From: an uncultured Bacilli bacterium
GTDB lineage: Bacteria; Bacillota_I; Bacilli_A; RF39; UBA660
Direction: 5' to 3'
Assembly (NCBI GenBank): GCA_944358535.1
Contig: CALVRH010000001.1
Location: 23,708-87,707, forward strand
Length of the DNA stretch: 64,000 nucleotides
The position numbers were made by a program, and so were the translations under genes. The first letter of the stretch is position 1, and each line of letters begins with the position of its first letter. Shown one piece after another: positions 2,095-16,613 of the stretch. The notes beneath the pieces are model-generated. The model saw nothing but the letters and a program-made list of their open reading frames with translations. It searched no databases and was not told where the DNA came from.

Positions 2095-2146
2095 ACTACC
2101 TCACCTATTAACATTATACCTTAAAATATAAGGAAAACCAAAGAAA

Positions 2147-3397
2147 TTAGTATTTTCCTTTGGTTTTTTTGCATATATTATTTCTTTCTATTATTAAATT
2201 TAGTATTTCGTTTATTTTTTCTTCAGTTGGATTATCCGCCGTTTTATTTAATTTTTCTAATATTGCTTCTTCACTTTCTTTTGTAAATTCAGATGATATA
2301 GGGTCTGAAAATTTGAGGGCTTCAACTAAGTCTTGATTGTTTATTTTTTTAGCTATGTTTAAAGCTTCTTCAATAAAATTTTGGATGTTATTTATTTTTT
2401 TATCATATTCTTTTAATCTATTTTTGACGAAATATAAAGGTAAGAATATGATAAAATATATGATAGTTGTAACTATAGTTATGATTAAAAGATTATTTAT
2501 ATTTAAGTAAGCATATATGTTTATAGCAAATAGATAAATGATGGATAAAATATATAAGAAAGTTATATATACTGTTTTATCTTGATTTTTCTTTTTATTT
2601 AGAATTAATATAATCAACAAGGTTATAATTAGGGCCACTAATTCTATTATAATGGCAAGATAAAAATTATTATTGATATTTTCGTCTATTATTTGATTTA
2701 TAGTTATAACAGACGAAGGAATATATATTTCGCTTGGCATTTTATCTAAATTCATAGAAATAGTGGTTACAGGAAGATTTTCAATGGTTTCTGGGATTAT
2801 AATTTGTTTTTCACTACCTTTATAACCAGTTACTTCTATTTGATTATTTTTGATGTTATAAGTGAAATTATCGTTACTTTTAAGTTCGTTTAGTTCACTA
2901 TCTGATATGTTTTGATAATTAAAATTGTTTTTTTCGGCATAGTTTTGAACATTTTGATTATTATGTGAGGTTAGTTTGATAGAGCTATTATTGATTGATT
3001 TTATATTTTCATCTATTATTTGATTTATGGTTATAACAGATGAAGGAATATATATTTCACTTGGCGCTTTATCTAAACTCATAGAAATAGTGGTTACAGG
3101 AAGATTTTCAATGGTTTCTGGTATTATTATTTGTTTTTCACTACCTTTATAACCAGTTATTTCTATTTGATTATTTTTGATATTATAAGTAAAATTATCG
3201 TTACTTTTAAGTTCGTTTAGTTCACTATCTGATATATTTTGATAATTAAAATTGTTTTTTTCGGCATAGTTTTGAACATTTTGATTATTATGTGAGGTTA
3301 GTTTAATGGAATTGTTATTAAACGGTTTATTTAGATAGGTTAGAGTTAAGAAAATGGTACTTATTAATATTATAATAACTGGAATGATTTTTTTCAT
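2147..3397 (-). CDS. Membrane protein with two near-identical 118-aa tandem repeats (BspA-like LRR fragments), 4 TM helices and a cytoplasmic coiled C-terminus
   Basis: 416-aa ORF. Repeat unit SIKLTSHNNQNVQNYAEKNNFNYQNISDSELNELKSNDNFTYNIKNNQIE[IV]TGYKGSEKQIIIPETIENLPVTTISM.LDK.PSEIYIPSSVITINQIIDENI occurs twice; the IPSSVITI segment resembles BspA-type LRRs. Start is 1 nt downstream of the SPFH gene stop. Confidence 0.5.
   Translation of the reverse strand: MKKIIPVIIILISTIFLTLTYLNKPFNNNSIKLTSHNNQNVQNYAEKNNFNYQNISDSELNELKSNDNFTYNIKNNQIEITGYKGSEKQIIIPETIENLPVTTISMSLDKAPSEIYIPSSVITINQIIDENIKSINNSSIKLTSHNNQNVQNYAEKNNFNYQNISDSELNELKSNDNFTYNIKNNQIEVTGYKGSEKQIIIPETIENLPVTTISMNLDKMPSEIYIPSSVITINQIIDENINNNFYLAIIIELVALIITLLIILILNKKKNQDKTVYITFLYILSIIYLFAINIYAYLNINNLLIITIVTTIIYFIIFLPLYFVKNRLKEYDKKINNIQNFIEEALNIAKKINNQDLVEALKFSDPISSEFTKESEEAILEKLNKTADNPTEEKINEILNLIIERNNICKKTKGKY
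2609..3316 (-). repeat. Two tandem ~354-bp near-identical direct repeats inside CDS 2147..3397
   Basis: DNA blocks ~2609-2962 and ~2963-3316 are almost identical (e.g. 'gataattaaaattgtttttttcggcatagttttgaacattttgattattatgtgaggttagttt' occurs twice), giving the two 118-aa protein repeats. Confidence 0.8.
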
Positions 3398-3398
3398 A

Positions 3399-4544
3399 TT
3401 ATTTTATTCTCCTTCCACATTTTGGACAAAATATGTTATCGGGTTCTAATTTATGATGGCAGTTTGGGCAGGTTAAATTATTTTCTAATGAGGTTCCACA
3501 TTTTTTGCAAAAGCTGTGATCTTTAGAGTTTGCAGTTCCACACTTTGGACATGTTTTAGTATTGTCAATATTAGCGATAACACCTTGAACATTATTTCCA
3601 ACTTTGTCGCCTAAAGTGGTACCTATTCCGCTCATGATACCAAGTCCTACTCCAACGTTAGCAAATTCGCCTACGCCTTCGTTAGCAGCCATTTTTTCTA
3701 AGGCATTATAAGATCTTTCTTCTTGATATGAGTAACCTTCTTGTTCACGTTTTTTAGCTTCGGCTTCAGAAGCAATGACTTTTTGTTTGGCTTTGGTTTC
3801 TTCATCAATAAGTTTTACTTTTTGTCTTAATTCGGCTTCAGCTACAGAAACGGTTTGTTTAAAATATAATTCTTTAAATTCTAAGTATTGTTTATCATCC
3901 TCTGGTTTTAATATGGTAGTTACAAAGAATTTATTTAGTTTAATGCCATAGTCTGCAAAGTCTTTATTTAAAAGTTTTTGAAGGGTATCACTAAAGTCGT
4001 TTAAGTATTTATCAACTTCAAAGATACATATTTTATTTTCGGTTATGATGTTTGCCATATAACTTTTAACTTTTGTTAATATGCATGATGTGAAGAAGTT
4101 ATCAATTGTTTCATTATCGATTGTTTTTTTGATTCCGACTAGTTTTATTAATAATTTTCTTGCGTCTTCGACAATGAAACGCATTTCACCGCAAGCTCCA
4201 ATTTGAATTGGGAAATTATATTTCGGGTCTAGAAATTCAATTTTACTACTGGTTCCCCATTTACTATTTTTTTCGGTTTTATCGATAAAATATACTTCAC
4301 ACTGAAAGGGACTTCTAAAACCGGTTGGAATATTTAAAAATGTTTTTAGAAGTGGAATATTATTGGTGGTTAAGGTATATTTACCTGGTCCAAATAAATC
4401 TAAAGCTTTACCATTTGAGAAAAATAAGGCTTCTTGTGACTCATGGACTATTAACTGCGACATTGTGTTAAAATTTGTTTTAGGATATCTCCATACTAGA
4501 TTATCGTCGGCTTTTACTTTTTTTATTACTTCAAATATTGCCAT
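3399..4544 (-). CDS. SPFH/band-7 domain protein with C-terminal double zinc ribbon
   Basis: 381 aa. N-terminal ~270 aa match the SPFH fold family often annotated 'virion core protein-like' in Firmicutes, followed by a coiled segment. C-terminus has CPKCG...CKKCG and CPNCH...CPKCG zinc-ribbon pairs. Start is 9 nt downstream of the TIR gene stop. Confidence 0.65.
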   Translation of the reverse strand: MAIFEVIKKVKADDNLVWRYPKTNFNTMSQLIVHESQEALFFSNGKALDLFGPGKYTLTTNNIPLLKTFLNIPTGFRSPFQCEVYFIDKTEKNSKWGTSSKIEFLDPKYNFPIQIGACGEMRFIVEDARKLLIKLVGIKKTIDNETIDNFFTSCILTKVKSYMANIITENKICIFEVDKYLNDFSDTLQKLLNKDFADYGIKLNKFFVTTILKPEDDKQYLEFKELYFKQTVSVAEAELRQKVKLIDEETKAKQKVIASEAEAKKREQEGYSYQEERSYNALEKMAANEGVGEFANVGVGLGIMSGIGTTLGDKVGNNVQGVIANIDNTKTCPKCGTANSKDHSFCKKCGTSLENNLTCPNCHHKLEPDNIFCPKCGRRIK

Positions 4545-4553
4545 AATTTACCT

Positions 4554-6401
4554 CTACTTTCTTTTTGGAATATATTTTGAATATGCATATTCTCCATTTT
4601 GTGATTTATATCCAGAGTATACATAACCTGTTTTGTTTGGTATATATTCTATTTTATACCAAAGACCATCTTTATTTGGACAGTTATCTATATTTTTACA
4701 TGACACTATTTCTAGTACATTATAATAATTTCCTGAAAAGATATAATCTTGTTTTTGGCTACTGCTATCTGGATTTTTTCTAACATTTATATAATCGATT
4801 GTTACTAATATTTGGTTTTCATTTGTGTTTTTTGCGCCTATATTTTTTGGTTTCATGAATACGATGAATATTAAGGTGATTGATAATACTATAGCAAGTA
4901 TATAGGCAATTATTGGCGTTTTAGTATGTGGGTTATCTTCAAAATTTTTCTTTGTTTCTTTTTGTAATTGTTTAATTTCTTCAGCGTACTGTTTTTTGAT
5001 AAGGGTTGTTTCGGCTTTTAATTGCCATTTAGAGTTCATTAATATTAGTATGATAGTGAATATGTAAATACCTAGTATAGATGAGTTAAAAGTTAAGTTA
5101 TATTCTTTATATATAAAGACTGAAAATAGTAAGAATATAAATAGATTTATAATATATAGATATTTAGATATTCTTCGGCTTTTTCGGCTACTAAAACCTA
5201 GTATATAAGCTATAAAATATATTATAGATGTCGTGCCAAAGATTATCACGAGTTGGTCAGATAATAGTTTTATATATAAAGTTGGATTGTTTGAAACAAA
5301 AACAGAATTACTAATTAATATAATATAGAAAGTGGCTACTACAGCGGAGAGTAAAAATGTGATGATGCTATAACTTTTTGGGCATTTTTCTTTGTATATT
5401 TTAACTTCTACGCCTCTTTCTTCTTCCTCTCTTTTTAATTCTTCCTGTTTTAACATTTCTTTGAATTTATTGAATAATTCATCAGATATTTCTTCGTTTT
5501 TTGGTGTTTTTTTGATTATTTTAGTAATACCTCTTATTAAATCTTGAATAGCACCTATTTTATTTAGGTCTTGTCCTTGAAGAAGAATAAATTCTTCAGG
5601 TAAGTCAGAGGCTGTCATGCCATAAAAACAAGGAATTAAGGTTTTATTTTTGTCTTTTTTCATGATGTCTAAGTAACGACTCCACTCATTTTTGACCCAA
5701 ACTGAGTTCATGTTTTTTTGAGATGTTCCAATTACCAACATTACTTTTGAGGATTTTAGTGCTGAATAGATATATGGTTCATATTCTGAGCCTATTTTAT
5801 CTTCTAGAGTAATTCTAGAGAAGAATACTTTATAGTTTAATTTAGTTAATTCGTTATATATTTCTTGGGCTATTACGGAATCTTTGGTTCGTCCACCATT
5901 TTTTTCGTCGGTTTCTTTATAACATATGAATATATCATATGGGCTTTCTTTTTCAGATATTTCTAATATTCCTTTTTGAATTCTATTAATTTCTTTAGCT
6001 TCTTTTTCATAGAGTTCTAATGTTTTACCATAAGCATTTTTTACGATATGTTTATACTCTTGAGTAGTTAAAATTGATTCTTTATTAGTTCTATGACAAG
6101 TAGGAATTTTTTTATTTGTTTTAGGGTCATCGACATATTCGACGCCGTATTTACAAAGAAGAATACCCCACTGCGCTTCTAACTGAGTGTTATCAAGATT
6201 TAATATAGATTCATATAGTCCTTGCGCTTTATCAAACTCATTAGATTGTCTTAATTCGTTTGCTCTATTATAAAGGTTGATTATTTTTTCATTATCAGAG
6301 TTTGGCAAGGTCATAGTACTTTTACAGTATAGACATTTACCGGTATTAGTACCTTTAATTGGCTCAATATCGCCGCCACACATTTTACATTTAAAGGTCA
6401 T
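4554..6401 (-). CDS. TIR-domain membrane protein (Zn-ribbon - TPR-like - TIR - 5 TM - SH3b)
   Basis: 615 aa. N-term CKMCGG...CLYCKS zinc ribbon. TIR core YDIFICYKETD...KVFFSRITLEDKIGSEYEPYIYSALKSSKVMLVIGTSQKNMNSVWVKNEWSRYL (DIFISY-like beta-A strand, SxWxxxE catalytic-type glutamate). Five hydrophobic helices. C-terminal SH3b-like ...INVRKNPDSSS...WYKIEY...GYVYSGY. Confidence 0.75.
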   Translation of the reverse strand: MTFKCKMCGGDIEPIKGTNTGKCLYCKSTMTLPNSDNEKIINLYNRANELRQSNEFDKAQGLYESILNLDNTQLEAQWGILLCKYGVEYVDDPKTNKKIPTCHRTNKESILTTQEYKHIVKNAYGKTLELYEKEAKEINRIQKGILEISEKESPYDIFICYKETDEKNGGRTKDSVIAQEIYNELTKLNYKVFFSRITLEDKIGSEYEPYIYSALKSSKVMLVIGTSQKNMNSVWVKNEWSRYLDIMKKDKNKTLIPCFYGMTASDLPEEFILLQGQDLNKIGAIQDLIRGITKIIKKTPKNEEISDELFNKFKEMLKQEELKREEEERGVEVKIYKEKCPKSYSIITFLLSAVVATFYIILISNSVFVSNNPTLYIKLLSDQLVIIFGTTSIIYFIAYILGFSSRKSRRISKYLYIINLFIFLLFSVFIYKEYNLTFNSSILGIYIFTIILILMNSKWQLKAETTLIKKQYAEEIKQLQKETKKNFEDNPHTKTPIIAYILAIVLSITLIFIVFMKPKNIGAKNTNENQILVTIDYINVRKNPDSSSQKQDYIFSGNYYNVLEIVSCKNIDNCPNKDGLWYKIEYIPNKTGYVYSGYKSQNGEYAYSKYIPKRK

Positions 6402-6505
6402 TTAAAACACACTCCCACTACTTTTTCTATTATGATTTTATCATATTTGTTTTTTTAAAACAATGATTTATAAAAGTACGGTCAAAATACAAATATTGTT
6501 ATAAT

Positions 6506-8350
6506 TTATTTTTTTTCTAATTTTTTAACATATTCATTGTTATCTCCACTATATACATACCCTATTACTCCTTTGCCAGTTTTAATTTTATACCAATAAG
6601 TACTATAATCGTCATATTCGTCTTCTTCGATGGCTTCTAATATTGTATATATTTCACCTTTTTTTACTTCGCCTAAAATATGAGTATTATTATATGTATT
6701 AGTTTCTTGTCTAATTCTAAGGTATTCTGTAATTATTTCTATTTGCTCTTTAGTATCATCGCGTTTATTTGTTTGTTCATTATTTAATGATGTGGCTGTT
6801 TTTATGATAAATAACAAGATGGTTATTATAACAATTATGAGTATTATTTTTTTTCCTTTAGTTTTTTCTTTTGTTTTAAAATTTTCCTTAATATATTTAT
6901 TTTTCTTTAACTGGTTATCTTTTTCTTCGGTAGTCATTATCGATTTAGTACTAGAGTTTAATGTCCAAGATGGATTTAATAATGAAGATATAACTTGAAC
7001 TATAATTATAAAACTATTTATAAGTATTAATTCAAAATTGCCTATCACAATGTTTTCGACGGCTCTAAAATTTTTGTCAGCGAAGTTATCAACGACAGCA
7101 CAAAAAACGTTATTAAACTGTAATATTAATAAAGCTATAGAGAGCGCTGTGAGCAAACTTTTATATTTATATGTTTTTCTTTTGAAGCAAAATATAAATG
7201 ATAAAATAAAGAATATTAAAGATAAGATTATTAATATATAGCTGGATAGTTCAGTATAGTTAATGTCTAACAGTAATAGATAACAAATGCTAGCTATAAA
7301 AATTATTCCTACTTGAATTAAATAGTACCATATTGGAAGATTTTCTTTTAATATAGTAACTTCATATTTACCATTTCCTAAGTTTTTGGCTTCGTCTAAA
7401 ACATTTTGAACTTTAGCAATGGTTTCTTTATCTATGCCTTCAATGTCGTCTACTTTAGTTTCTTCAATTATTTTTTTAACGCCTCTTGTTAAATCTTGCA
7501 TGGCGCCAACTTTATCCATTGATTGAGCTTGAAGCATGGCAAATTCTTCCGGAAGTTTATAGGCGTCTATTTTACTATATACGGGTATTAAAACTTTTGA
7601 TTTGTCCTGATGCATCATTTCTAAAAATCTATTCCACTCGTTTTTGACCCATACAGCACTAAAGTTTTCTTCGCTGGTTCCAACTACGAGCATTACTTTT
7701 GATGTTTTTAAAGCTGAGTAGATATATGGTTCATATTCTTTTCCAAGTTTATTTTCTAAGGTTATTTTAGAGAAAAACACTTTAAATCCAAGATTTGTTA
7801 GTTTATCATAGATATCTTCGGCAATGACAGAGTCATGGGTACGATTTCCTTGTTTATCGGTTTCTTTATAACAAATGAAAACATCATAAGGCTTTTCTTT
7901 TGAAGAAATTGATAGAATATTTTTTTGAATTTCATCGATTTGTTTAGCTTCTTTTTCGTAAAGTTTTAGAGCATCACCATACGAATTTTTTTTGATATAT
8001 TTAAAATCATTATCTAGTAAGATTGAGTAGTCATTTGTTCTATGACATGTTGGTATTTTTTTATTTGTTTTTGGGTCGTCGACGTATTCGACGCCGTATT
8101 TACAAAGAAGGATACCCCAGTGAGCTTCTGTTTGAGTGTTATCTATTTTTAATATGGTTTCATATATTTCTCTTGATTTATCAAATTCATTATTTAATCT
8201 TAAGTCATTGGCTCTATTATATAGGTTTAATATTCTTTCATTATCGATATTAGGCAAGGTCATTATACTTTTACAGTATAGACATTTACCGGTATTAGTG
8301 CCTTTAATTGGCTCGATATCGCCACCACACATTTTACATTTAAAGGTCAT
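6506..8350 (-). CDS. TIR-domain membrane protein, paralog of 4554..6401
   Basis: 614 aa with the same architecture. First ~100 aa ~75% identical (MTFKCKMCGGDIEPIKGTNTGKCLYCKS...). TIR core YDVFICYKETDKQGNRTHDSVIAEDIY...SAVWVKNEWNRFL. C-terminal SH3b ...WYKIKTGKGVIGYVYSGD. Its 5' leader is near-identical to that of the other copy. Confidence 0.75.
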   Translation of the reverse strand: MTFKCKMCGGDIEPIKGTNTGKCLYCKSIMTLPNIDNERILNLYNRANDLRLNNEFDKSREIYETILKIDNTQTEAHWGILLCKYGVEYVDDPKTNKKIPTCHRTNDYSILLDNDFKYIKKNSYGDALKLYEKEAKQIDEIQKNILSISSKEKPYDVFICYKETDKQGNRTHDSVIAEDIYDKLTNLGFKVFFSKITLENKLGKEYEPYIYSALKTSKVMLVVGTSEENFSAVWVKNEWNRFLEMMHQDKSKVLIPVYSKIDAYKLPEEFAMLQAQSMDKVGAMQDLTRGVKKIIEETKVDDIEGIDKETIAKVQNVLDEAKNLGNGKYEVTILKENLPIWYYLIQVGIIFIASICYLLLLDINYTELSSYILIILSLIFFILSFIFCFKRKTYKYKSLLTALSIALLILQFNNVFCAVVDNFADKNFRAVENIVIGNFELILINSFIIIVQVISSLLNPSWTLNSSTKSIMTTEEKDNQLKKNKYIKENFKTKEKTKGKKIILIIVIITILLFIIKTATSLNNEQTNKRDDTKEQIEIITEYLRIRQETNTYNNTHILGEVKKGEIYTILEAIEEDEYDDYSTYWYKIKTGKGVIGYVYSGDNNEYVKKLEKK

Positions 8351-8438
8351 TTAAAACTCACTCCCACTATTTTCTATTATGATTTTATCATATTTGATTT
8401 TGAAAAGCAAATGAAAAATTGGCGTTGTTTTGACCAAT

Positions 8439-9053
8439 TTATTTATTTTCTAGATATTCATTTTGCTCTTTTAAAATTTGTTTTGCTTTATTGTTATCTA
8501 TTACTTTATAGATTTCATATCTAATTTGCTGAAGGGTTTTATATTGACTTTTTTCTTTTTTTGTTGGTTTTTCTATTGTTTTAAATTTTTCTAGATTTTC
8601 TTCAGTGTTAGTTAGTATTATATTTAATTCATTATTATTAAATGTTTTATTAGAAATATAATCTTGGTATAAAGTAGTTACAATGTCTAGGCTTTCTAAT
8701 TTATAAAAATAGTTATTAAATTCATCTTGGTATTTATCATATGCTTTATTTTTTAATAAGGCATTAAAATACCATACGGTGTAAATGGAATATTCTTTTT
8801 CGGCGTCTTTACTATCTTTTCTTTCCTTTATGAAATTATCTTTTTCTTTCAACAATTGACTATAGTATTTTATTTGTTTACTATAGTTTTTTGTTCCATA
8901 GAGATTACGACATAGTGTGATTAGATCATTATAGTCTTTGGTTTTGTTATATTTTTGTTCTAGATGTTTTGGGAGGTTTTGATCCCAACAATAAGAAAAT
9001 GTGAGTGTAATAGCTATAACTATTAATAAACTTACAATGATTTTTTTGATCAT
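8439..9053 (-). CDS. Hypothetical membrane-anchored protein
   Basis: 204 aa, single N-terminal TM helix (IIVSLLIVIAITLTF) then a K/Y/N-rich soluble domain. No recognisable motifs. Confidence 0.35.
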   Translation of the reverse strand: MIKKIIVSLLIVIAITLTFSYCWDQNLPKHLEQKYNKTKDYNDLITLCRNLYGTKNYSKQIKYYSQLLKEKDNFIKERKDSKDAEKEYSIYTVWYFNALLKNKAYDKYQDEFNNYFYKLESLDIVTTLYQDYISNKTFNNNELNIILTNTEENLEKFKTIEKPTKKEKSQYKTLQQIRYEIYKVIDNNKAKQILKEQNEYLENK

Positions 9054-9067
9054 GATATCATCTCCTA

Positions 9068-10477
9068 TTAATTATTTACTCCATGGGTGACCATTGGGGT
9101 ACTCATGGTTATTTTATCAAAACTATAACCATTATTTTTACCAAATTGAATAATACTTTTTAGGGCATCTCTAGTTTGGGGTTTTATATCGTGCATTAAA
9201 ATGACATTGGCTCTATTTTTGCTTAGGTTTTTAACAACATTATTGTATACGGTTTTAGAGCTTCTAGCGCTTCCTGCGTCGTCACTATCAACATTCCAGT
9301 CAAAGTAATGATAGCCTTTATTTACAACGTCTTTTGTAAGAGTAGTCATGATACCTTTTGAGTATTTTTTTGAAATGGTATTGGATGAACCTCCTGGAAA
9401 TCTAATTATTTTTGATTCATATCCAGTTATTCTTTTAACTCTATTTTGGACTTGTAATAGGTCATTATAATAATTATTTACTGAACTATAAACTGTTGAA
9501 TAGTTATGAGTTGCAGTGTGAAGTCCAACGGTATGTCCTTCATTATATTCTCTTTTTATTAGAGAATCTGGACCACTATTAGTGACAAAGAATGTGGCTT
9601 TGACATTTTCTTCTTTTAAAATATCTAAAATAACGTTTGTCGTGCCTTCTTTTGGGCCATCGTCGAAGGTTAGATAAATGATACCTTTATTAACCGTGGA
9701 ATTATTTTTTACAGGTTTATTTATTACTTTTACAGTTCTATCTATACTAAAGGTATTACTGGTAGAATCTTTAACTGTATAATTTATTTTGTATGTGCCT
9801 ACTTTATTGGTATTTACGCTTCCGGATGTTATGACTTTACTAGTTAAATCATTATCACAATTATCAGCTGCAGTATAACCTGGTTCTTTCCAAGATTCAC
9901 CAATATATATGGTTTGAGACTGATTTCCTTTTAAGGTTATTGTTGGACTGGTTTTATCTTCTTTAGTGATGGTTCTAGTTAGTTCAGTTTTATTACCTGA
10001 CGAATCTTCTACTTTATATGTTATGATATTGTTTTTAGTAATAACTTGAACTTTGCTTGTGATGTCACCATCATAATTATCTATTGCTTTATAACCTTCT
10101 TCTTTATATTCTTTATTTGGACATATGGTTATATTTTGATTTCCTGTTAAAGTTATTTTTGGCTTTTCTTTATCTATTAGTTTAACTTTTCTTATTTGTT
10201 TAAATGTTAATCCGTTTATTTTTACTTGATATATTATGTCATATGTACCTAGTTTGTTTTTATTGATTTTATTAGTTATTTTTACATTTTTTGAATAATC
10301 ATGGCCAAATTTTGTTACTTTATAACCTGGTTCTTTATATTTTTGACCATATTTTAAGGTTATGTTTTGTCCTTTAGTTAATTCAAATTTTGGCGGCCAA
10401 AAAAATAAAACTACTAGGCTAATTAATAATAAAATAATTATAATTATAATTATACTAATAACGTACTTCTTTTTCAT
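9068..10477 (-). CDS. Polysaccharide deacetylase (PgdA-like) with three N-terminal Ig-like (DUF5011-type) domains
   Basis: 469 aa. TM anchor, three repeats of the ...G.Q.ITI..GE.WKEPGY.A.DN.D.D.TSKV... type, then NodB domain (LTFDDGP, HTATHNY, RFPGGS, LMHD). Confidence 0.8.
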   Translation of the reverse strand: MKKKYVISIIIIIIILLLISLVVLFFWPPKFELTKGQNITLKYGQKYKEPGYKVTKFGHDYSKNVKITNKINKNKLGTYDIIYQVKINGLTFKQIRKVKLIDKEKPKITLTGNQNITICPNKEYKEEGYKAIDNYDGDITSKVQVITKNNIITYKVEDSSGNKTELTRTITKEDKTSPTITLKGNQSQTIYIGESWKEPGYTAADNCDNDLTSKVITSGSVNTNKVGTYKINYTVKDSTSNTFSIDRTVKVINKPVKNNSTVNKGIIYLTFDDGPKEGTTNVILDILKEENVKATFFVTNSGPDSLIKREYNEGHTVGLHTATHNYSTVYSSVNNYYNDLLQVQNRVKRITGYESKIIRFPGGSSNTISKKYSKGIMTTLTKDVVNKGYHYFDWNVDSDDAGSARSSKTVYNNVVKNLSKNRANVILMHDIKPQTRDALKSIIQFGKNNGYSFDKITMSTPMVTHGVNN

Positions 10478-12639: not shown

Positions 12640-13401
12640 TTATTTATATAGGCTTATTATGGTATCTAAGTTTATTTGCAGTAGTAATAGTAATGTGGCT
12701 CCAGCTACAAGAAATGGTCCAAATGGAATTATATTATCTTTTTTCTTTAATAAAATAATTAAGGCGATTGGAAGACCAATTAATGAGCCAATAAATATTG
12801 ATAATATTGCGATGGGATAAGTTAGAACCATACCGAAGACAAATAATAATTTAATATCTCCTCCGCCCATTGATTCTTTTTTAAATATAAAGTCTCCAAA
12901 TTTTTTTAGTAGAAACATGGTTAAGAATGCAAAAAAACCATTTAACAGTGAATTGAGTGCTGGCTTTAAGCCATCTATAGCAAGTATTTCTACGAATAAG
13001 ATAATTGCGAAAGTTATTAGTACTTCATCAGAAATTATGAGATAATGATAGTCGCTGACGACTATGATGATCATCATTGAAACAAAGGTTAAGGCAATTA
13101 TTAATTTTGGAGTTAGTCCAAAGGAAATATAACATAGGACAAAAAGGATACCGGTTAGTAGTTCAAAAATTGGATAAAATAAAGATATTTTTTGATGGCA
13201 ATGTTTACATTTTCCTTTTTGAAATATATATGACAATATAGGTATTAATTCTATGTTTGTTAACCTATGATTGCAATTTGTACAATGGCTTGGGGGAAAG
13301 ACGATTGATTCACCTTTTGGAAGTCTATAGCCAACTACATTGTAAAAGGAACCAAAAATAGTTCCTATTATGAATATAAATATACCAATGATTATTTCCA
13401 T
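12640..13401 (-). CDS. Prepilin peptidase (A24 family, PilD/ComC-like)
   Basis: ORF 12640..13452. Start trimmed to ATG at 13401 (MEIIIGIF...) with AGGTGA RBS and no overlap with the upstream gene. N-terminal Cys tetrad (C..C...C..C), multiple TM helices and the conserved ...GGGDIKLL... aspartyl region. Confidence 0.75.
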   Translation of the reverse strand: MEIIIGIFIFIIGTIFGSFYNVVGYRLPKGESIVFPPSHCTNCNHRLTNIELIPILSYIFQKGKCKHCHQKISLFYPIFELLTGILFVLCYISFGLTPKLIIALTFVSMMIIIVVSDYHYLIISDEVLITFAIILFVEILAIDGLKPALNSLLNGFFAFLTMFLLKKFGDFIFKKESMGGGDIKLLFVFGMVLTYPIAILSIFIGSLIGLPIALIILLKKKDNIIPFGPFLVAGATLLLLLQINLDTIISLYK

Positions 13402-13411
13402 ACCATCACCT

Positions 13412-15142
13412 TTATGCTTGAATTTGACCGTACATTGAGAACATTGGTACAACGATTGATAAAACTATGATTCCAACCATAACGGTTAATAAGATGATTA
13501 AGGCTGGTTCCACAAATGTTTTAATACGTGTTACTGAATTTTTATGTAGGTCTTGATAATATAGGGCAATTTTATTCATCATTTCTGGAAGCTGGCCAGT
13601 TCTTTCTCCTGTTACAATCATTTCGTATGCTGGAATTGGAAATGCCCATTGATCTTTAAAGGCAGATGAAATTGATTTACCTTGAGCAATGTTGTTAATG
13701 GCATCATATATTAAGGATCTATATATTTCGTTATTTGTTACTTTATCTAATATTTCCATACTATCTGTTATGAATACATTATGTGATAGTAATGAGGAAA
13801 ATGTTTTTGAAAATGTTGTTACTTCTTTATATATGATTACATCACCAAATACAGGTAAGTGCATTAATGTCCATTGAATGGTTCTTCTAAATGATTTAAC
13901 ATTTTTATATAGATAAATACATAATACTAAGATTACAACAACACTAATACCTATATATATTATATATTTTTGTAAGAAGTTACTTACAGCTAAAACAGCT
14001 AAGGTAATACCTGGTATTTCGGCATTATCCATAGAATTATATATTTCAATAAATTTAGGAACGACATATAGCATTATGAAAGTTCCAACGCCAATAGCAA
14101 TAACAAAAATTATTGTTGGATAAAGCATTGCGGTTACCATGGCTTTTCTGGTGGCTTCAATTTCTGAAAAGTATTCTTCCATGTCATCTAATGTTTCTGG
14201 TAGTTCTCCAGTCATTTCAGCTGTTTTAACCATATTTGTTAAGATTGACGGAAATGCATTTTCTTGTTTTTCGAGCGCTTCACTAAAGCTTTTTCCAATT
14301 GATAAATCATAGTTTAAAGTAGATAAAATTCTTTTATATTTTTTATTTTTAAATTGTTTAGATAAGATATTTATTGCTTCGGCAAGTGGCATTCCGACTT
14401 TTAAGTACGTAGATACTTGAGCTAGGAAAAAGATTAAATCTTTTGTTTTGAATTTATCGTGTGATCCACCTACACTACCATACATGGCATTTATCCATCT
14501 ATTTGTTCTAATACTATAGACGATGTTGCCTTGACTTTTTAAATATGAATGTACTTCCACTAAGGAAAAGGCTGAGAAGTATCCTTTAATTACTTTTCCT
14601 TCAGGATTTCTAATTATATATTCATAAGTTTGTTTTTCTTTTGTTTTTTGGGCTTCTGGTCCTTCATAGTTGATGGTCATTTCTTCAGCATTTTGATATT
14701 TATCTTTGATTTGACCAAGTCCAAGGACATTTTTAATTTTATCTGAAAAACTTAATACTTCTGTTCCGAATTGATCTAATTTTTCACTAGCTGTTTTATC
14801 TTCTAATTTTGAGCTATCTTGAATATAGTCGTTTAATCTTCTTTGGGCTTTCTTTTCTTCTTTTTCTTGTAATTTCTGTCTAGTTTCTTCTTCTTTTTGT
14901 TTTTTTAATGCCTTTTCTTGTTCGTGCTGGGCTAATAAGATATCTGTTTTTTTATAAATATTTTCGGTTTTTTGAGAATTTATGGTTACTTTATCTTTTT
15001 TATCTTTAGCAAATAATTTTACAAGCATTGCCATTAATGCAACTATTCCCAAAAAAACGTATTTTATAAATGAAAAAAATATTTTTATAACGACTAAAAG
15101 ACCTTCAAAAATATATTTAAATGGTGAAAGTACTGTTTTCAT
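13412..15142 (-). CDS. Type II secretion/type IV pilus platform protein (GspF/PilC family) with long N-terminal extension
   Basis: 576 aa. Two T2SSF-type segments (...FLAQVSTYLKVGMPLAEAINIL... and ...PEMMNKIALYYQ...) in the C-terminal 400 aa. An extra ~170 aa N-terminal region has a TM helix and a charged coiled-coil (KKQKEEETRQKLQEKEEKKAQRRL). Confidence 0.75.
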   Translation of the reverse strand: MKTVLSPFKYIFEGLLVVIKIFFSFIKYVFLGIVALMAMLVKLFAKDKKDKVTINSQKTENIYKKTDILLAQHEQEKALKKQKEEETRQKLQEKEEKKAQRRLNDYIQDSSKLEDKTASEKLDQFGTEVLSFSDKIKNVLGLGQIKDKYQNAEEMTINYEGPEAQKTKEKQTYEYIIRNPEGKVIKGYFSAFSLVEVHSYLKSQGNIVYSIRTNRWINAMYGSVGGSHDKFKTKDLIFFLAQVSTYLKVGMPLAEAINILSKQFKNKKYKRILSTLNYDLSIGKSFSEALEKQENAFPSILTNMVKTAEMTGELPETLDDMEEYFSEIEATRKAMVTAMLYPTIIFVIAIGVGTFIMLYVVPKFIEIYNSMDNAEIPGITLAVLAVSNFLQKYIIYIGISVVVILVLCIYLYKNVKSFRRTIQWTLMHLPVFGDVIIYKEVTTFSKTFSSLLSHNVFITDSMEILDKVTNNEIYRSLIYDAINNIAQGKSISSAFKDQWAFPIPAYEMIVTGERTGQLPEMMNKIALYYQDLHKNSVTRIKTFVEPALIILLTVMVGIIVLSIVVPMFSMYGQIQA

Positions 15143-15641: not shown

Positions 15642-16613
15642 TTATATATTGCCTTCAATTCTATATGGGTTATTTATTGTTCCATTTCCAACTAAATTAA
15701 TATGTGAAGATATGTAAACTACTGGCATAACATAATAAGGAGTGTAACTTTTTAGTGGTGTAGATAGAGTGCCAGTTGCGTTTTCAGTAACTATATATGC
15801 GGTACGACCCGAGCTGTCGTTTGGCTCAGTCATGGTCCATGACCCTCCACCATATAAATCTGTTAAAGGTGTGTATAACCAATTTTTTGTTTTGCATATT
15901 TCATAGTTATCTTTATCAAGTTCGATAGTTCCACAATTTATATAATCAGAATTTGCTTTTAAATATTCTGATACTGTTATTAATCCCATATATCCATTCC
16001 ATTGAACTGATTTTTCATCTTTAATTAATTGACCTAGATAGCTAGTACTGTCATTACTTATTAATTTTCCTGCATTCCAAGCATGGGAAATAACTTTTTC
16101 TTTATCACGCGCTAATAAACCATTATACTTGTTTGGCAAAACACTTTTAACTAATGAGGATTCTGCCCAATTTGTTTCATAATCCCCCCATATCGTTCTG
16201 CTATTGGCTTTAGTATTAATATCAGTATCTATCAATTTAATTGTTTCGTCTGATTCAAAAGATAATATTCGCCAATTTTCATCATTAAATCTAATATAAT
16301 TTTTGGGTGATGTTCCTCTATAGATATATTTACCTTCTTCATATTCATCTTTATATAGTCCATCACCTGAAGTAACAATTTCTATTGGATTATTATTAGC
16401 TATAGGAGTATCTGGTTTTGAACATTTTACATATAACTCGTCAATTGCGCTTTGGACATCGTTGCTTTTTAAACCACTATTTGTATTATCATAAGTCACG
16501 TCATTACTTGGAAAATAGGTAGCAGCTGTAACACCGGCTGTTCCAGCGATAAAAATGCCAAGCATAAAAATAAATATTCTGTTTTTAATTATTTTCTTAA
16601 TTTTATGTTTCAT
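15642..16613 (-). CDS. TM-anchored surface protein, 'ATYFPS-DVTYDNT / W-T-S-P ... VRP' paralog family (member A1)
   Basis: 323 aa. N-terminal TM helix, conserved ...AATYFPSNDVTYDNTNSGLKSNDVQSAIDELYVKC..., C-terminal ...NWLYTPLTDLYGGGSWTMTEP...YYVMPVVYISS. About 40% identical to the 50843..51772 product. Confidence 0.5.
   Translation of the reverse strand: MKHKIKKIIKNRIFIFMLGIFIAGTAGVTAATYFPSNDVTYDNTNSGLKSNDVQSAIDELYVKCSKPDTPIANNNPIEIVTSGDGLYKDEYEEGKYIYRGTSPKNYIRFNDENWRILSFESDETIKLIDTDINTKANSRTIWGDYETNWAESSLVKSVLPNKYNGLLARDKEKVISHAWNAGKLISNDSTSYLGQLIKDEKSVQWNGYMGLITVSEYLKANSDYINCGTIELDKDNYEICKTKNWLYTPLTDLYGGGSWTMTEPNDSSGRTAYIVTENATGTLSTPLKSYTPYYVMPVVYISSHINLVGNGTINNPYRIEGNI

Follow-up and report, generated by a model that had tools for sequence, protein, structure and literature searches.

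Paired transmembrane TIR-domain proteins belong to a conserved TIR-SPFH-4TM gene cassette of gut Firmicutes

Introduction

Two adjacent genes of an uncultured Bacilli bacterium encode proteins that carry a TIR domain, five hydrophobic helices and an SH3b domain, raising the question of whether they form a stand-alone pair of sensors with an enzymatic TIR output or belong to a larger system. The original prediction from this DNA saw in them paralogous transmembrane sensors, each wired to an NAD+-cleaving TIR effector and reminiscent of TIR-based anti-phage or abortive-infection systems. We analyzed the genes within a 64,000-bp stretch of contig CALVRH010000001.1 (the window), their neighborhoods, and their relatives in other genomes. 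All coordinates are window positions, and all features described are on the minus strand.

Architecture of the paired TIR proteins

TIR-B (6506..8350, 614 aa) and TIR-A (4554..6401, 615 aa) are both intact open reading frames and share the domain order zinc ribbon, helical/hairpin region, TIR domain, five transmembrane (TM) helices and SH3b domain. In the highly conserved cytoplasmic head of ~300 aa, the C4 zinc ribbon is followed by the helical/beta-hairpin region and then by a TIR domain whose W-x-x-x-E motif is intact. The TIR domain spans residues 153–297 in TIR-A (5511..5945) and residues 153–296 in TIR-B (7463..7894). The Pfam TIR_2 profile matched residues 157–271 of TIR-A (E = 7.6e-11, 43.0 bits) and residues 157–274 of TIR-B (E = 5.4e-11, 43.5 bits), both exceeding the cut-off of 28 bits, and it matched all 60 of 60 diverse relatives. 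Fold searches with the AlphaFold2 model revealed a flavodoxin-like TIR fold that can be superposed on solved TIR domains, the matches including SARM1, SPARTA, TIR-SAVED, and TIR-STING, with ThsB and SpbK as further structural neighbors.

The zinc ribbon, which in TIR-A spans residues 1–33 (6303..6401), gave no Pfam match in either protein. Its four cysteines (C5, C8, C23, and C26, in the arrangement CxxC-x14-CxxC) were invariant or at least 90% conserved over the 60 diverse relatives, and the AlphaFold2 model places three short strands in this region. The pre-TIR region of TIR-A (5946..6296, residues 36–152) contains three TPR-like helices, a conserved beta-hairpin (GVEYVDDP...PTCHR), and two further helices, modelled at pLDDT 83–93. 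Nine of its residues (W78, C83, G86, E88, Y89, D92, P100, T101, and R104) were invariant in the alignment of the 60 relatives. The TPR_2 profile stayed below the Pfam threshold in both proteins (E = 0.036 for TIR-A and 0.0049 for TIR-B).

The W-x-x-x-E motif reads SVWVKNEW at residues 233–240 of TIR-A and AVWVKNEW at residues 232–239 of TIR-B. The putative catalytic glutamate of TIR-A is Glu239 (codon at 5685..5687), with Glu238 as its counterpart in TIR-B (7637–7639). Residues W235, V236, N238, E239, and W240 were invariant in 60 diverse representatives as well as in 23 loci, and the motifs W-V-x-N-E-W and D-x-F-x-C-x-K-E were strictly invariant in all members sampled. E239 aligns with the glutamates of the L6/L7 'SKWCLMEL' and TcpB 'WPAREL' motifs, which we take to be catalytic in those proteins.

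Taken together, the C4 zinc ribbon, the domain order, the TIR fold, and the retained glutamate, all read from the letters of the DNA in the original prediction (which quoted the motifs as SVWVKNEW and SAVWVKNEW), hold up against profiles, models, and alignments; of its 'TPR-like helices', the three-helix stretch is present in the model and the assignment to TPR by profile is not. It had also described a conserved N-terminal end and a diverging C-terminal end, and this pattern was recovered. TIR-A and TIR-B are 45% identical overall, with 94% identity in the zinc ribbon, 72% in residues 36–152, and 65% in the TIR domain, falling to 33% in the linker, 30% in the TM block, and 27% in the SH3b domain. 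For the whole N-terminal module the identity is 71%, slightly lower than the ~75% first estimated.

Membrane topology and the SH3b domain

Five hydrophobic helices were identified by hydropathy in the membrane blocks of both TIR-A (4854..5372) and TIR-B (6788..7327). In TIR-A, hydropathy and charge counts place them at approximately residues 345–363, 384–402, 411–429, 436–454, and 497–515, with a lysine-rich cytoplasmic loop at 455–496, and the helices of the AlphaFold2 model coincide with these segments. In both proteins, loops 2 and 4 carry four to eight lysines or arginines and loops 1 and 3 carry zero to two. Judged from hydropathy and charge, the TIR domain likely lies inside the cell and the SH3b domain outside, which is the topology first proposed for these proteins.

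The SH3b domain of TIR-A (4602..4814, residues 530–600) is predicted to be extracellular. SH3_3 matched residues 538–598 of TIR-A (E = 4.7e-7, 30.3 bits; Pfam cut-off 27), and the SH3b-like domain of TIR-B (6539..6718) scored marginally, just below the cut-off (residues 557–602, E = 7e-6, 26.6 bits). SH3_3 was found at E = 1.8e-12 in a close relative (P0140), and in a Foldseek search with the TIR-A model the SH3b region matched the SH3b-containing 5d74 and BT_1314. This putative extracellular domain would most likely bind peptidoglycan.

This topology bears on the suggestion that the proteins are host-directed effectors of the TcpB/BtpA or TirS type, which would mimic host TIR adaptors and dampen gut innate immunity. 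The carriers are animal-gut bacteria, and a weak sequence match to TcpB was found. However, the TIR domain is N-terminal, has no signal peptide, and lies upstream of five TM helices, so that it stays in the bacterial cytoplasm, and no secretion-system genes were present among the genes examined beside the cassette. We consider a host-directed role highly improbable.

Operon organization and partner proteins

The two genes do not stand alone, a point missed in the original prediction. They are the first two genes of a four-gene operon with the order TIR-B, TIR-A, SPFH gene, and 4-TM gene, separated by gaps of 104, 9, and 1 bp, and neighborhoods of 43 loci, together with four loci sampled via the 4-TM protein, place them in a conserved TIR(n)-SPFH-4TM cassette. 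A promoter-like element precedes TIR-B (8376..8404), with the palindrome TATGATAAAATCATA at 8378–8392, and is duplicated upstream of TIR-A (6429..6458), with TATGATAAAATCATA at 6431–6445; the palindrome-bearing element had two matches against 0.09 expected. A terminator-like hairpin (2134..2167), with a 13-bp stem and a T-rich tail, overlaps the stop codon of the 4-TM gene and likely marks the end of the operon.

The SPFH partner (3399..4544), whose gene starts 9 bp after TIR-A, is a soluble, flotillin-like protein of 381 aa consisting of a Band_7_1 domain (Pfam, E = 1.4e-40), a glycine-rich low-complexity linker, and a YdjI/SamI-like double zinc ribbon (Pfam DZR and Zn_Ribbon_1). It is 26% identical to Bacillus subtilis YdjI (E = 2e-18). 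The 4-TM partner (2147..3397), encoded 1 bp after the SPFH gene, is a membrane protein of 416 aa. Its core, as defined by the family alignment, has four TM helices and a helical tail in the cytosol in which the motifs S-D-P and ERNxxCK are invariant, and the copy in the window bears a duplicated 109-aa extracellular insert. The profile search gave no Pfam match for this protein, and the structure search with its model gave no significant match.

The SPFH partner invites comparison with the PspA-YdjGHI (SamGHI) system of B. subtilis. Like YdjI/SamI, it is soluble and runs from a Band_7_1 domain through a low-complexity linker to zinc ribbons at the C-terminus, and in both systems the SPFH gene is co-transcribed with genes for membrane proteins of two kinds, one kind having an N-terminal cytoplasmic zinc ribbon. 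YdjI/SamI, itself soluble, depends on partners in the membrane and keeps a membrane stress-sensor complex in check (PMC8581546; bioRxiv 10.64898/2026.02.06.704340). However, TIR-A is not homologous to YdjG (SamG), the best BLASTP segment (E = 0.06) covering only the zinc ribbon; the 4-TM partner is unrelated to YdjH (SamH), a TPM-domain (TPM_phosphatase) protein; and YdjGHI has no TIR domain. The analogy therefore rests on one component. Neither the operon nor the recurrent neighbors of the 43 loci include a PspA gene.

Recurrence of the cassette and spread of the family

Unbiased clustering of open reading frames from the 43 loci yielded only three families that recur in distant lineages: TIR (85 ORFs, with members at 43 of 43 loci), SPFH (27 of 43 loci), and 4TM (22 of 43 loci), all encoded on one strand. 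Where loci were sampled independently via the 4TM protein, the order TIR, Band_7_1, 4TM was found in four out of four. The triad recurs in Clostridia and Bacilli with one to four TIR paralogs per locus, the copy number varying from one to three among close relatives. Of 11 distant loci whose sequence extends 5 kb or more in both directions, four lacked the SPFH gene, so its adjacency is frequent but not obligatory, and orphan TIR paralogs without a nearby SPFH gene were found at loci L032, L034, L037, and L041 and in Lachnospira (Eubacterium) eligens.

The TIR-A/TIR-B family is very large and undescribed, and it is found in gut Firmicutes. At least 3,888 protein clusters contain the N-terminal module. 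The C-termini attached to the head are very variable (TPR, LRR, DUF6273, RCC1, and SH3b types), with Pfam domains LRR_5, LRR_8, DUF6273, RCC1, Flg_new, and SH3_3 among the relatives. A single TM helix followed by a large ectodomain was predicted for 74 of 149 representatives, and for roughly 30% no TM helix was predicted at all. The five-TM and SH3b layout, first presented as the architecture, is only a minor one of the hundreds of C-terminal architectures carried by this head.

Relation to defence systems and Toll-like receptors

Thoeris was considered and rejected. No ThsA-type partner (SIR2-SLOG or Macro-TM) is present, the neighbors being the SPFH and 4-TM genes; no PADLOC Thoeris model matched; and the NCBIfam ThcB4 model scored TIR-A and TIR-B at 19.6 and 22.7 bits, below its cut-off of 220 bits. 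The proteins are architecturally distinct from Thoeris, as had been proposed. The accompanying leaning towards anti-phage or abortive-infection functions found no tie to defence in PADLOC, plasmid, or phage searches. The TIR genes lie in the core chromosome. Against PADLOC-DB v2, TIR-A had one weak match (candidate PDC-S66, E = 1.9e-6), and TIR-B, the SPFH protein, and the 4TM protein had none at E ≤ 0.1. Among 148 neighboring proteins from 32 distant loci, PADLOC gave scattered generic matches with no consistent signal of a defence island. The module was absent from 72,556 plasmids and 50,697 phage records, and three matches were found among 2.9 million viral contigs.

These results weigh on two further explanations. 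Each TIR gene might be a self-contained abortive-infection or anti-phage sensor-effector, with the SPFH and 4-TM genes functionally unrelated to it. The orphan paralogs, the PDC-S66 match of TIR-A, and the varying TIR copy number among close relatives would suit such a unit. However, the SPFH and 4TM genes are the only neighbors conserved across orders and sit at 9-bp and 1-bp gaps in the window, TIR-B lacks any PADLOC match, and the surroundings are those of neither a defence island nor a mobile element of the plasmid or phage kind, which makes a single-gene unit decidedly doubtful. A little less improbable, yet still unlikely, is a Thoeris-like two-step signalling system, in which the TIR domain would make a cyclic-ADPR-type or related signal and the 4-TM (or SPFH) protein would be the effector that damages or seals the membrane. 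In AbTir, the tryptophan four residues before the catalytic glutamate influences product cyclisation, and the W-x-x-x-E motif is present in the TIR family. ThsB, SpbK, and TIR-SAVED are among the structural neighbors, and the strictly conserved cytosolic tail of the 4-TM protein (S-D-P, ERNxxCK) may be a ligand-binding or switch module. Against two-step signalling, searches of the SPFH and 4-TM partners turned up neither a SLOG, Macro, SIR2, or SAVED domain nor any other known nucleotide sensor, and the missing structural match of the 4-TM protein and missing PADLOC Thoeris match point the same way.

By architecture only, the family resembles Toll-like and IL-1 receptors in having a variable ectodomain, a membrane span, and a cytoplasmic TIR domain; some members have LRR ectodomains, and paralog arrays keep the TIR domain and diversify the ectodomain. 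The top PDB sequence-profile match was a TLR TIR domain (E = 6.8e-5). A Toll-like receptor architecture was nevertheless rejected for the proteins in the window. Their polarity is reversed, with an N-terminal TIR domain and an N-in/C-out orientation, and they are five-pass proteins with an SH3b ectodomain, whereas TLRs have N-terminal LRRs, a single TM helix, and a C-terminal TIR domain. The LRR ectodomains belong to other family members, neither an adaptor nor a kinase cascade accompanies the proteins, and nothing points to common descent of the whole architecture.

Is the TIR head an enzyme?

Compared with enzymatic TIR proteins (SARM1, plant NLR TIRs, AbTir/TcpB, ThsB, SPARTA TIR-APAZ, TIR-SAVED, and TIR-STING), the TIR-A/TIR-B family has a unique invariant N-terminal extension of zinc ribbon and helical/hairpin region and an invariant cysteine in beta-A (FICYKE). 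The TIR domains of the window are joined to TM helices and ectodomains, and their partners belong to the SPFH and 4TM families, not to SIR2, Macro, SLOG, Argonaute, or CD-NTase. NAD+ cleavage by TIR-A and TIR-B, as in the original prediction, is putative. TLR TIR domains act as scaffolds and are not known to be enzymes, and in our alignment they too have a glutamate at the E239 position, so the conserved glutamate is no proof of catalysis.

The only family member found with experimental data is L. eligens C4Z355 (EUBELI_RS07950), the BPPS 'Group_01' TIR of Weagley et al. 2022 (PMC9092222). When its isolated TIR domain was assayed in E. coli lysates, no NAD+ products were obtained (PMC9092222 Table S2); the authors caution that the assay can yield false negatives (PMC9092222). 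C4Z355 is a true member of the head family (MGALKCKMCG..., VWVKNEW), 40% identical to TIR-A over 302 aa. It differs in having 685 aa and a TPR-type tail, in departing from family-invariant positions (YISYRA for FICYKE, KTAVS for RTxDS), and in its orphan gene, which has neither an SPFH nor a 4TM gene within 10 kb.

A non-enzymatic scaffold is the main alternative at this point. The head would then be a docking or oligomerisation module, with TIR used as in TLR/MyD88, that anchors surface proteins in SPFH-organised patches and clusters their ectodomains (SH3b, BspA-type LRR, DUF6273, Flg_new, and other adhesin-like types). The identity of 50–60% between heads of Bacilli and Clostridia is unusually conservative for an immune effector and also fits a structural role. 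However, the invariance of W-V-x-N-E-W and D-x-F-x-C-x-K-E resembles an active site more than an interface, a surface-anchoring role could not be general given the representatives that lack predicted TM helices, and the inactive C4Z355 deviates from the family in the ways just described. A pure scaffold is somewhat unlikely, if the strongest of the alternatives.

Proposed function of the cassette

Our preferred reading, a tentative one, is that TIR-A and TIR-B form an array of receptors that faces the envelope, has the TIR domain as its output, and is organised by an SPFH scaffold. In this reading they are membrane receptors, each TIR copy bearing a different C-terminal sensing part, and the TIR gene is amplified one- to fourfold. 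The variable outer part of the TIR protein would signal an envelope cue. An SPFH oligomer, docked via the TIR proteins and/or the 4-TM partner, would keep the TIR heads in a controlled arrangement. The cue might then alter the clustering of the heads, and clustering would turn on NAD+ cleavage, which would either deplete NAD+ or produce a small-molecule signal. Cells might respond with growth arrest or an envelope-stress response. The scheme builds on the architecture, fold, conserved glutamate, likely topology, operon, and gene triad established above; contact of the TIR proteins with the SPFH protein, activation by clustering, NADase chemistry, and the kind of cue are inferred. Activation of TIR enzymes through oligomerisation is established for SARM1, SPARTA, TIR-SAVED, and TIR-STING.

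A bolder and rather unlikely extension is that the TIR(n)-SPFH-4TM cassette serves Firmicutes very widely as a transmembrane surveillance system not recognised before, and that it is the bacterial counterpart of arrays of Toll-like receptors. In it, the different ectodomains of tandem paralogs would sense surface threats and pass the signal to the invariant cytoplasmic zinc-ribbon/TIR head, an SPFH cage and the 4-TM protein would gate head clustering, and NAD+ cleavage would be the output. If true, SH3b, LRR, DUF6273, RCC1, and other ectodomains would watch the cell surface for cues such as phage adsorption, cell-wall damage, and competitor or host factors.

Domain architecture and divergence of the TIR paralogs

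The two TIR genes were intact open reading frames (ORFs) arranged head-to-tail on the minus strand, TIR-B at 6506–8350 (614 aa) and TIR-A at 4554–6401 (615 aa), with the end of TIR-B 104 bp upstream of TIR-A. Pfam searches recovered TIR_2 above its curated cut-off at residues 157–271 of TIR-A (E 7.6e-11) and 157–274 of TIR-B (E 5.4e-11), and the C-terminal SH3_3 domains scored 30.3 bits in TIR-A and 26.6 bits in TIR-B, the latter slightly under the cut-off of 27. No Pfam zinc-ribbon model matched either protein; the CxxC-x14-CxxC pattern (C5, C8, C23, C26) was invariant or almost so in every alignment that we made. In the AlphaFold2 model of TIR-A (mean pLDDT 78, residues 1–300 at 80–93), the ribbon had three strands and led into three TPR-like helices, a beta-hairpin and two long helices; the TIR fold came next and was joined by a disordered linker to five long helices and then a beta-barrel. 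The ORFs, Pfam domains, cysteines, hydropathy and structural model together confirmed the original prediction of a gene pair running from zinc ribbon through TIR and membrane helices to SH3b, with the TPR-like helices present in the model but reaching only sub-threshold TPR_2 matches in the profile search of both proteins.

Both proteins had five hydrophobic segments, and Lys and Arg were abundant in loops 2 and 4 and sparse in loops 1 and 3. Because this is the pattern expected of an N-in/C-out protein, the SH3b domain is predicted to lie outside the cell, where it had been placed originally. With the TIR head in the cytoplasm, the predicted topology is receptor-like. TIR-A and TIR-B were 45% identical overall. 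The ribbon was 94% identical, residues 36–152 were 72% identical and the TIR domain 65%, giving 71% for the whole head, while the linker, membrane block and SH3b domain were only 27–33% identical. The expected contrast between a conserved N-terminus and diverged membrane and SH3b parts was therefore found, with the head identity somewhat below the ~75% first claimed.

A conserved TIR–SPFH–4TM cassette

The TIR genes are followed on the minus strand by a gene for an SPFH protein (3399–4544, 381 aa), which starts 9 bp after TIR-A, and by a gene for a four-transmembrane (4-TM) protein (2147–3397, 416 aa), which starts 1 bp after the SPFH gene. A terminator-like hairpin with a 13-bp stem (2167–2134, minus strand) overlaps the stop codon of this third gene. 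The TIR, SPFH and 4-TM genes are co-transcribed as a predicted operon, and the triad is conserved.

A near-identical promoter-like stretch precedes each TIR gene and contains the perfect palindrome TATGATAAAATCATA (6431–6445 and 8378–8392, minus strand), which overlaps a −10-like element ~30–40 bp upstream of each start codon. The palindrome occurs exactly twice in the 64-kb window, compared with 0.09 occurrences expected by chance, and is also found upstream of two of the three TIR copies in the syntenic locus L002; a regulator could use it as an operator site. A general promoter scan of the AT-rich window found 60 sites where 63 were expected. A MarR-family gene is located at 675–1112.

To survey the neighbourhoods of homologs, 43 genomic loci were fetched through TIR-A and all of their ORFs were clustered without prior assumptions. 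Only three families recurred in distant lineages: the zinc-ribbon/TIR head (85 ORFs in 43/43 loci), the SPFH protein (27/43) and a 4-TM protein of ~240 aa (22/43). The three genes share a strand, with one to four TIR copies per locus, and the cassette was present in Lachnospiraceae, Oscillospiraceae, Acutalibacteraceae, Erysipelotrichaceae, Defluviitaleaceae and metagenome-assembled genomes (MAGs) labelled ‘Mollicutes’. Carriers available in culture included Blautia sp. HCP3S3_H10_2 (L014), Lachnospiraceae AC2031 (L016) and strain A65 (L029). As an independent sample, we inspected four diverse long-contig matches from a profile search with the 4-TM protein. All four had the order TIR_2 (with TPR, RCC1 or DUF6273), Band_7_1 with zinc ribbon, and 4-TM protein, and their flanks were unrelated. 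The TIR pair, first described as two adjacent genes, is thus part of a larger conserved cassette. The adjacency of TIR and SPFH genes is not absolute: of the 11 distant loci that extended 5 kb or more in both directions, seven had the SPFH gene and four had orphan TIR copies. Such orphans are what one would look for if each TIR protein were a stand-alone abortive-infection protein, a reading that the recurrent triad leads us to consider very unlikely.

The partner proteins and their relation to SamGHI

The SPFH protein matched Band_7_1 (E 1.4e-40); a Gly-rich linker of low complexity separates this domain from two zinc ribbons at the C-terminus. It belongs to the same Pfam family as Bacillus subtilis YdjI/SamI and has the same layout (26% identity, E 2e-18); for this comparison the B. 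subtilis YdjGHI operon was retrieved from a metagenome contig via a published primer. YdjI is soluble and requires YdjG and YdjH to arrive at the membrane, where it recruits PspA (PMC8581546), and its loss unbalances the SamG–SamH stress-sensor complex (bioRxiv 10.64898/2026.02.06.704340). By analogy, the soluble SPFH protein of the cassette may rely on the TIR proteins, the 4-TM partner or both for docking at the membrane. The likeness does not extend to the other components: the match of TIR-A to YdjG was confined to the ribbon and non-significant (E 0.06), the third gene is unrelated to YdjH, a TPM-domain protein, and, unlike the B. subtilis PspA system, the cassette lacks a PspA gene. Full SamGHI membership was therefore rejected, with only the SPFH component being homologous.

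Clostridial SPFH partners (L009 17848–19767, L010 12353–14266, L011 1819–3705, L021 5225–7147, L029 7459–9270) are ~600–660 aa long and carry, besides the C-terminal ribbons, an N-terminal extension of ~125 aa consisting of three extra CxxC...CxxC zinc ribbons, which the 381-aa protein of the window does not have.

The 4-TM partner matched no Pfam family, and Foldseek gave no significant structural match (best E 0.08). Its cytosolic helical tail was confidently modelled (pLDDT ~90) and has an invariant S-D-P, within Y-S-D-P-V-S in most members, and the C-terminus reads E-R-N-x-x-C-K with invariant R, N and K. In the window, the third gene contains a tandem duplication at 2676–3304 (327 bp, 1.9 copies, 95% identical) that doubles a ~109-aa extracellular unit opening with a BspA/LRR_5-like motif (ITGYKGSEKQIIIPETIENLPVTTI). 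One such unit is present in L002, L004, L006 and L007 (307–308 aa), and two are present in L001 and the window.

Family size, outer domains and invariant residues

An exhaustive HMMER search from residues 1–335, clustered at 50% identity, yielded 6,680 clusters at E ≤1e-3 and 3,888 at E ≤1e-30, and the family is frequent in gut Clostridia and Bacilli. The head, typically 50–60% identical to that of the window, nearly always lies at the extreme N-terminus, in proteins of 432–2,363 aa. Among 149 representatives, 74 had one predicted transmembrane segment and a large C-terminal domain, 46 had none and 29 had several, with the 5-TM and SH3b type forming a small branch. TPR repeats separate the TIR domain from the membrane segment in about half of the members, and other domains joined to the head include DUF6273, BspA-type LRR_5, LRR_8, RCC1, WG repeats, MORN, Flg_new, TM2 and SH3_3. 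Across cassettes, the sensing end is thus amplified and diversified. TIR copy number differs even among close relatives (one to three copies); such variation, with diversified outward domains, is as expected for recognition proteins under diversifying pressure.

Invariant residues were identified in 60 diverse members, numbered as in P0140, a close relative (the TIR-A number is one higher from residue 167 on). Before the TIR domain these were the ribbon cysteines, W78, C83, G86, E88, Y89, D92, P100, T101 and R104; within it they were D156, F158, C160, K162, E163, R170, T171 and S174 and, in a second block, W234, V235, N237, E238, W239 and R241. C83, C102 and H103 of TIR-A (6093–6155), all family-invariant or near-invariant, lie in the pre-TIR hairpin. 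In place of the Ser usual in TIR domains, strand beta-A (FICYKE) has the invariant C160 (5922–5924). These four residues could jointly form a second metal site bridging the pre-TIR and TIR domains.

The conserved glutamate and NADase activity

When 23 diverse TIR regions of the family were combined into a profile, the invariant naVWVkNEW aligned with SKWCLMEL of flax L6/L7 and WPAREL of TcpB, tryptophan to tryptophan and glutamate to glutamate, the aligned Glu being what we take to be the catalytic residue of these enzymes. The retention of an SxWxxxE-type glutamate, noted originally, was therefore upheld, with catalysis itself a prediction from sequence. TLR TIR domains, which act as scaffolds and are not known to be enzymes, also carry Glu at the position equivalent to E239 of TIR-A. 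A Glu at the catalytic position is necessary for NADase activity, yet does not prove it, because scaffold-type TLR TIRs have the same residue.

Weagley et al. (2022) expressed 152 gut-bacterial TIR domains in Escherichia coli and assayed the lysates by HPLC (PMC9092222). Table S2 of that study contains one true family member, Eubacterium (Lachnospira) eligens EUBELI_RS07950 (C4Z355), for which two constructs were assayed and both were scored ‘None’; the authors state that false negatives are possible in the assay (PMC9092222). We gave this result little weight because C4Z355 is only 40% identical to TIR-A, departs from family-invariant residues near beta-A (YISYRA for FICYKE, KTAVS for RTxDS) and is encoded by an orphan gene that has neither an SPFH nor a 4-TM gene within 10 kb. 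Current activity predictions that call the clade ‘inactive’ rest on this one atypical member. In L. eligens CP085938.1 (L053, 638777–660834), the C4Z355 copy is flanked by 3-hydroxyacyl-CoA dehydrogenase and YjbR-like genes, and a 1,336-aa DUF6273/Peptidase_M64 surface protein is encoded ~8 kb upstream; DUF6273 is also a frequent ectodomain of the family.

Motif matches in supplementary file 2 of PMC9092222 had suggested TcpF, an ADPR-producing TIR of Enterococcus faecalis, as a clade member. This link was dropped because TcpF itself (MSNGKKIFISHSS...) is unrelated and the ‘TIR domain sequence’ column of that file (Table S1 as stored) does not line up with the gene identifiers or the full-length sequences; motif searches there can therefore assign the wrong activity label to a sequence.

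The main rival to our preferred mechanism makes the head a docking module without catalysis that organises surface proteins in SPFH patches. We consider this rival improbable while keeping it seriously in view.

Genomic setting and the question of defence

In the window, the cassette lies between genes for two polysaccharide deacetylase paralogs (Polysacc_deac_1; 1237–2094 and 9068–10477), the larger of which additionally contains three Ig-like surface domains. Synteny extends to related MAGs (L002–L008). These flanking genes point to cell-wall modification, which is consistent with an SH3b ectodomain. Directly upstream of TIR-B, the ORF at 8439–9053 encodes a protein of 204 aa that has a hydrophobic segment at its N-terminus and matches no Pfam family; it is kept only in the close relatives L003, L007, L008 and L043 and is therefore placed outside the broadly conserved cassette. 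The window, from a small, low-GC (28%) genome, is core chromosome. By reading of ORFs, others resemble phosphoglycerate mutase or are rpoB/rpoC-sized, and translations at 12640–15142 and 15642–16613 gave prepilin peptidase-like and PilC/GspF-like ORFs and a possible pilin-like protein.

PADLOC returned one weak match, of TIR-A to the candidate PDC-S66 (E 1.9e-6), and none for TIR-B, SPFH or 4-TM proteins at E up to 0.1, and the NCBIfam ThcB4 scores of the TIR proteins were a tenth of the cut-off. Thoeris and other known defence systems were therefore rejected as assignments, which bears out the originally proposed distinction from Thoeris. We also regard a Thoeris-like division into signal and effector, with the 4-TM protein as effector, as unlikely. 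In a rough check made without a matched background rate, 148 non-cassette neighbours from 32 distant loci gave only scattered PADLOC matches of at most two proteins each (WYL, UvrD-like GajB, PD-T4-6 kinase, Fic, PDC-S04/PDC-S15 candidates and MADS models). The head had no tblastn match in 72,556 plasmids or 50,697 phage records and was found in 3 of 2.9 million IMG/VR viral contigs, so carriage by mobile elements was rejected. At one locus (L051, JGI Ga0131853_10001152), genes for HTH repressors, a Viral_Rep protein and a phage-type integrase adjoin the cassette, which, unlike at other loci, may be part of an integrated element or border on one. These checks revealed no sign of a defence role, and the anti-phage or abortive-infection association raised originally gained no support from the PADLOC neighbours, the plasmid and phage searches or the core-chromosome setting.

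Proposed mechanism and significance

Our preferred reading, which we hold tentatively, is that envelope-facing TIR receptors are arranged by the SPFH protein and cleave NAD+ upon clustering. The SPFH protein would control the arrangement of the TIR heads, a cue at the outer domain, most plausibly peptidoglycan state in the case of SH3b, would alter that arrangement, and clustered heads would switch on NAD+ cleavage, by analogy with SARM1, SPARTA, TIR-SAVED and TIR-STING.

Earlier work on bacterial TIR proteins has, to our knowledge, dealt with sensors or effectors that act in the cytoplasm (Thoeris, SPARTA, CBASS, retron-linked) and with virulence factors that are secreted. That the TIR protein is a host-directed effector would suit a family frequent in gut bacteria; with the head predicted to be cytoplasmic, we hold this to be highly improbable. 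A surface-sensing TIR head would share its logic with animal Toll-like receptors, and it is conceivable, if doubtful, that the cassette is a bacterial TLR-like surface-surveillance system with the SPFH scaffold as gate.

TIR and SH3b domains are already known, as are SamI-type SPFH proteins, and family members carry the annotation ‘TIR domain-containing protein’. Our full-text literature search found no account of a TIR–SPFH cassette, of the zinc-ribbon/TIR head as a defined family or system, of its receptor-like fusion to hypervariable membrane-anchored domains, or of a conserved zinc-ribbon/TIR operon with SPFH and 4-TM partners.

The family is large, with at least 3,888 clusters and often several copies per genome, and its constant partners are a flotillin-like SPFH protein and a membrane protein of no known family. 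Solving the cassette could give SPFH/SamI-type scaffolds a concrete client, and if the TIR is an active NADase, the cassette genes would be relevant to the NAD+ metabolism of gut communities. By coupling a TIR head across a membrane span to a hypervariable outer domain, such a family would extend TIR signalling to cell-surface sensing.
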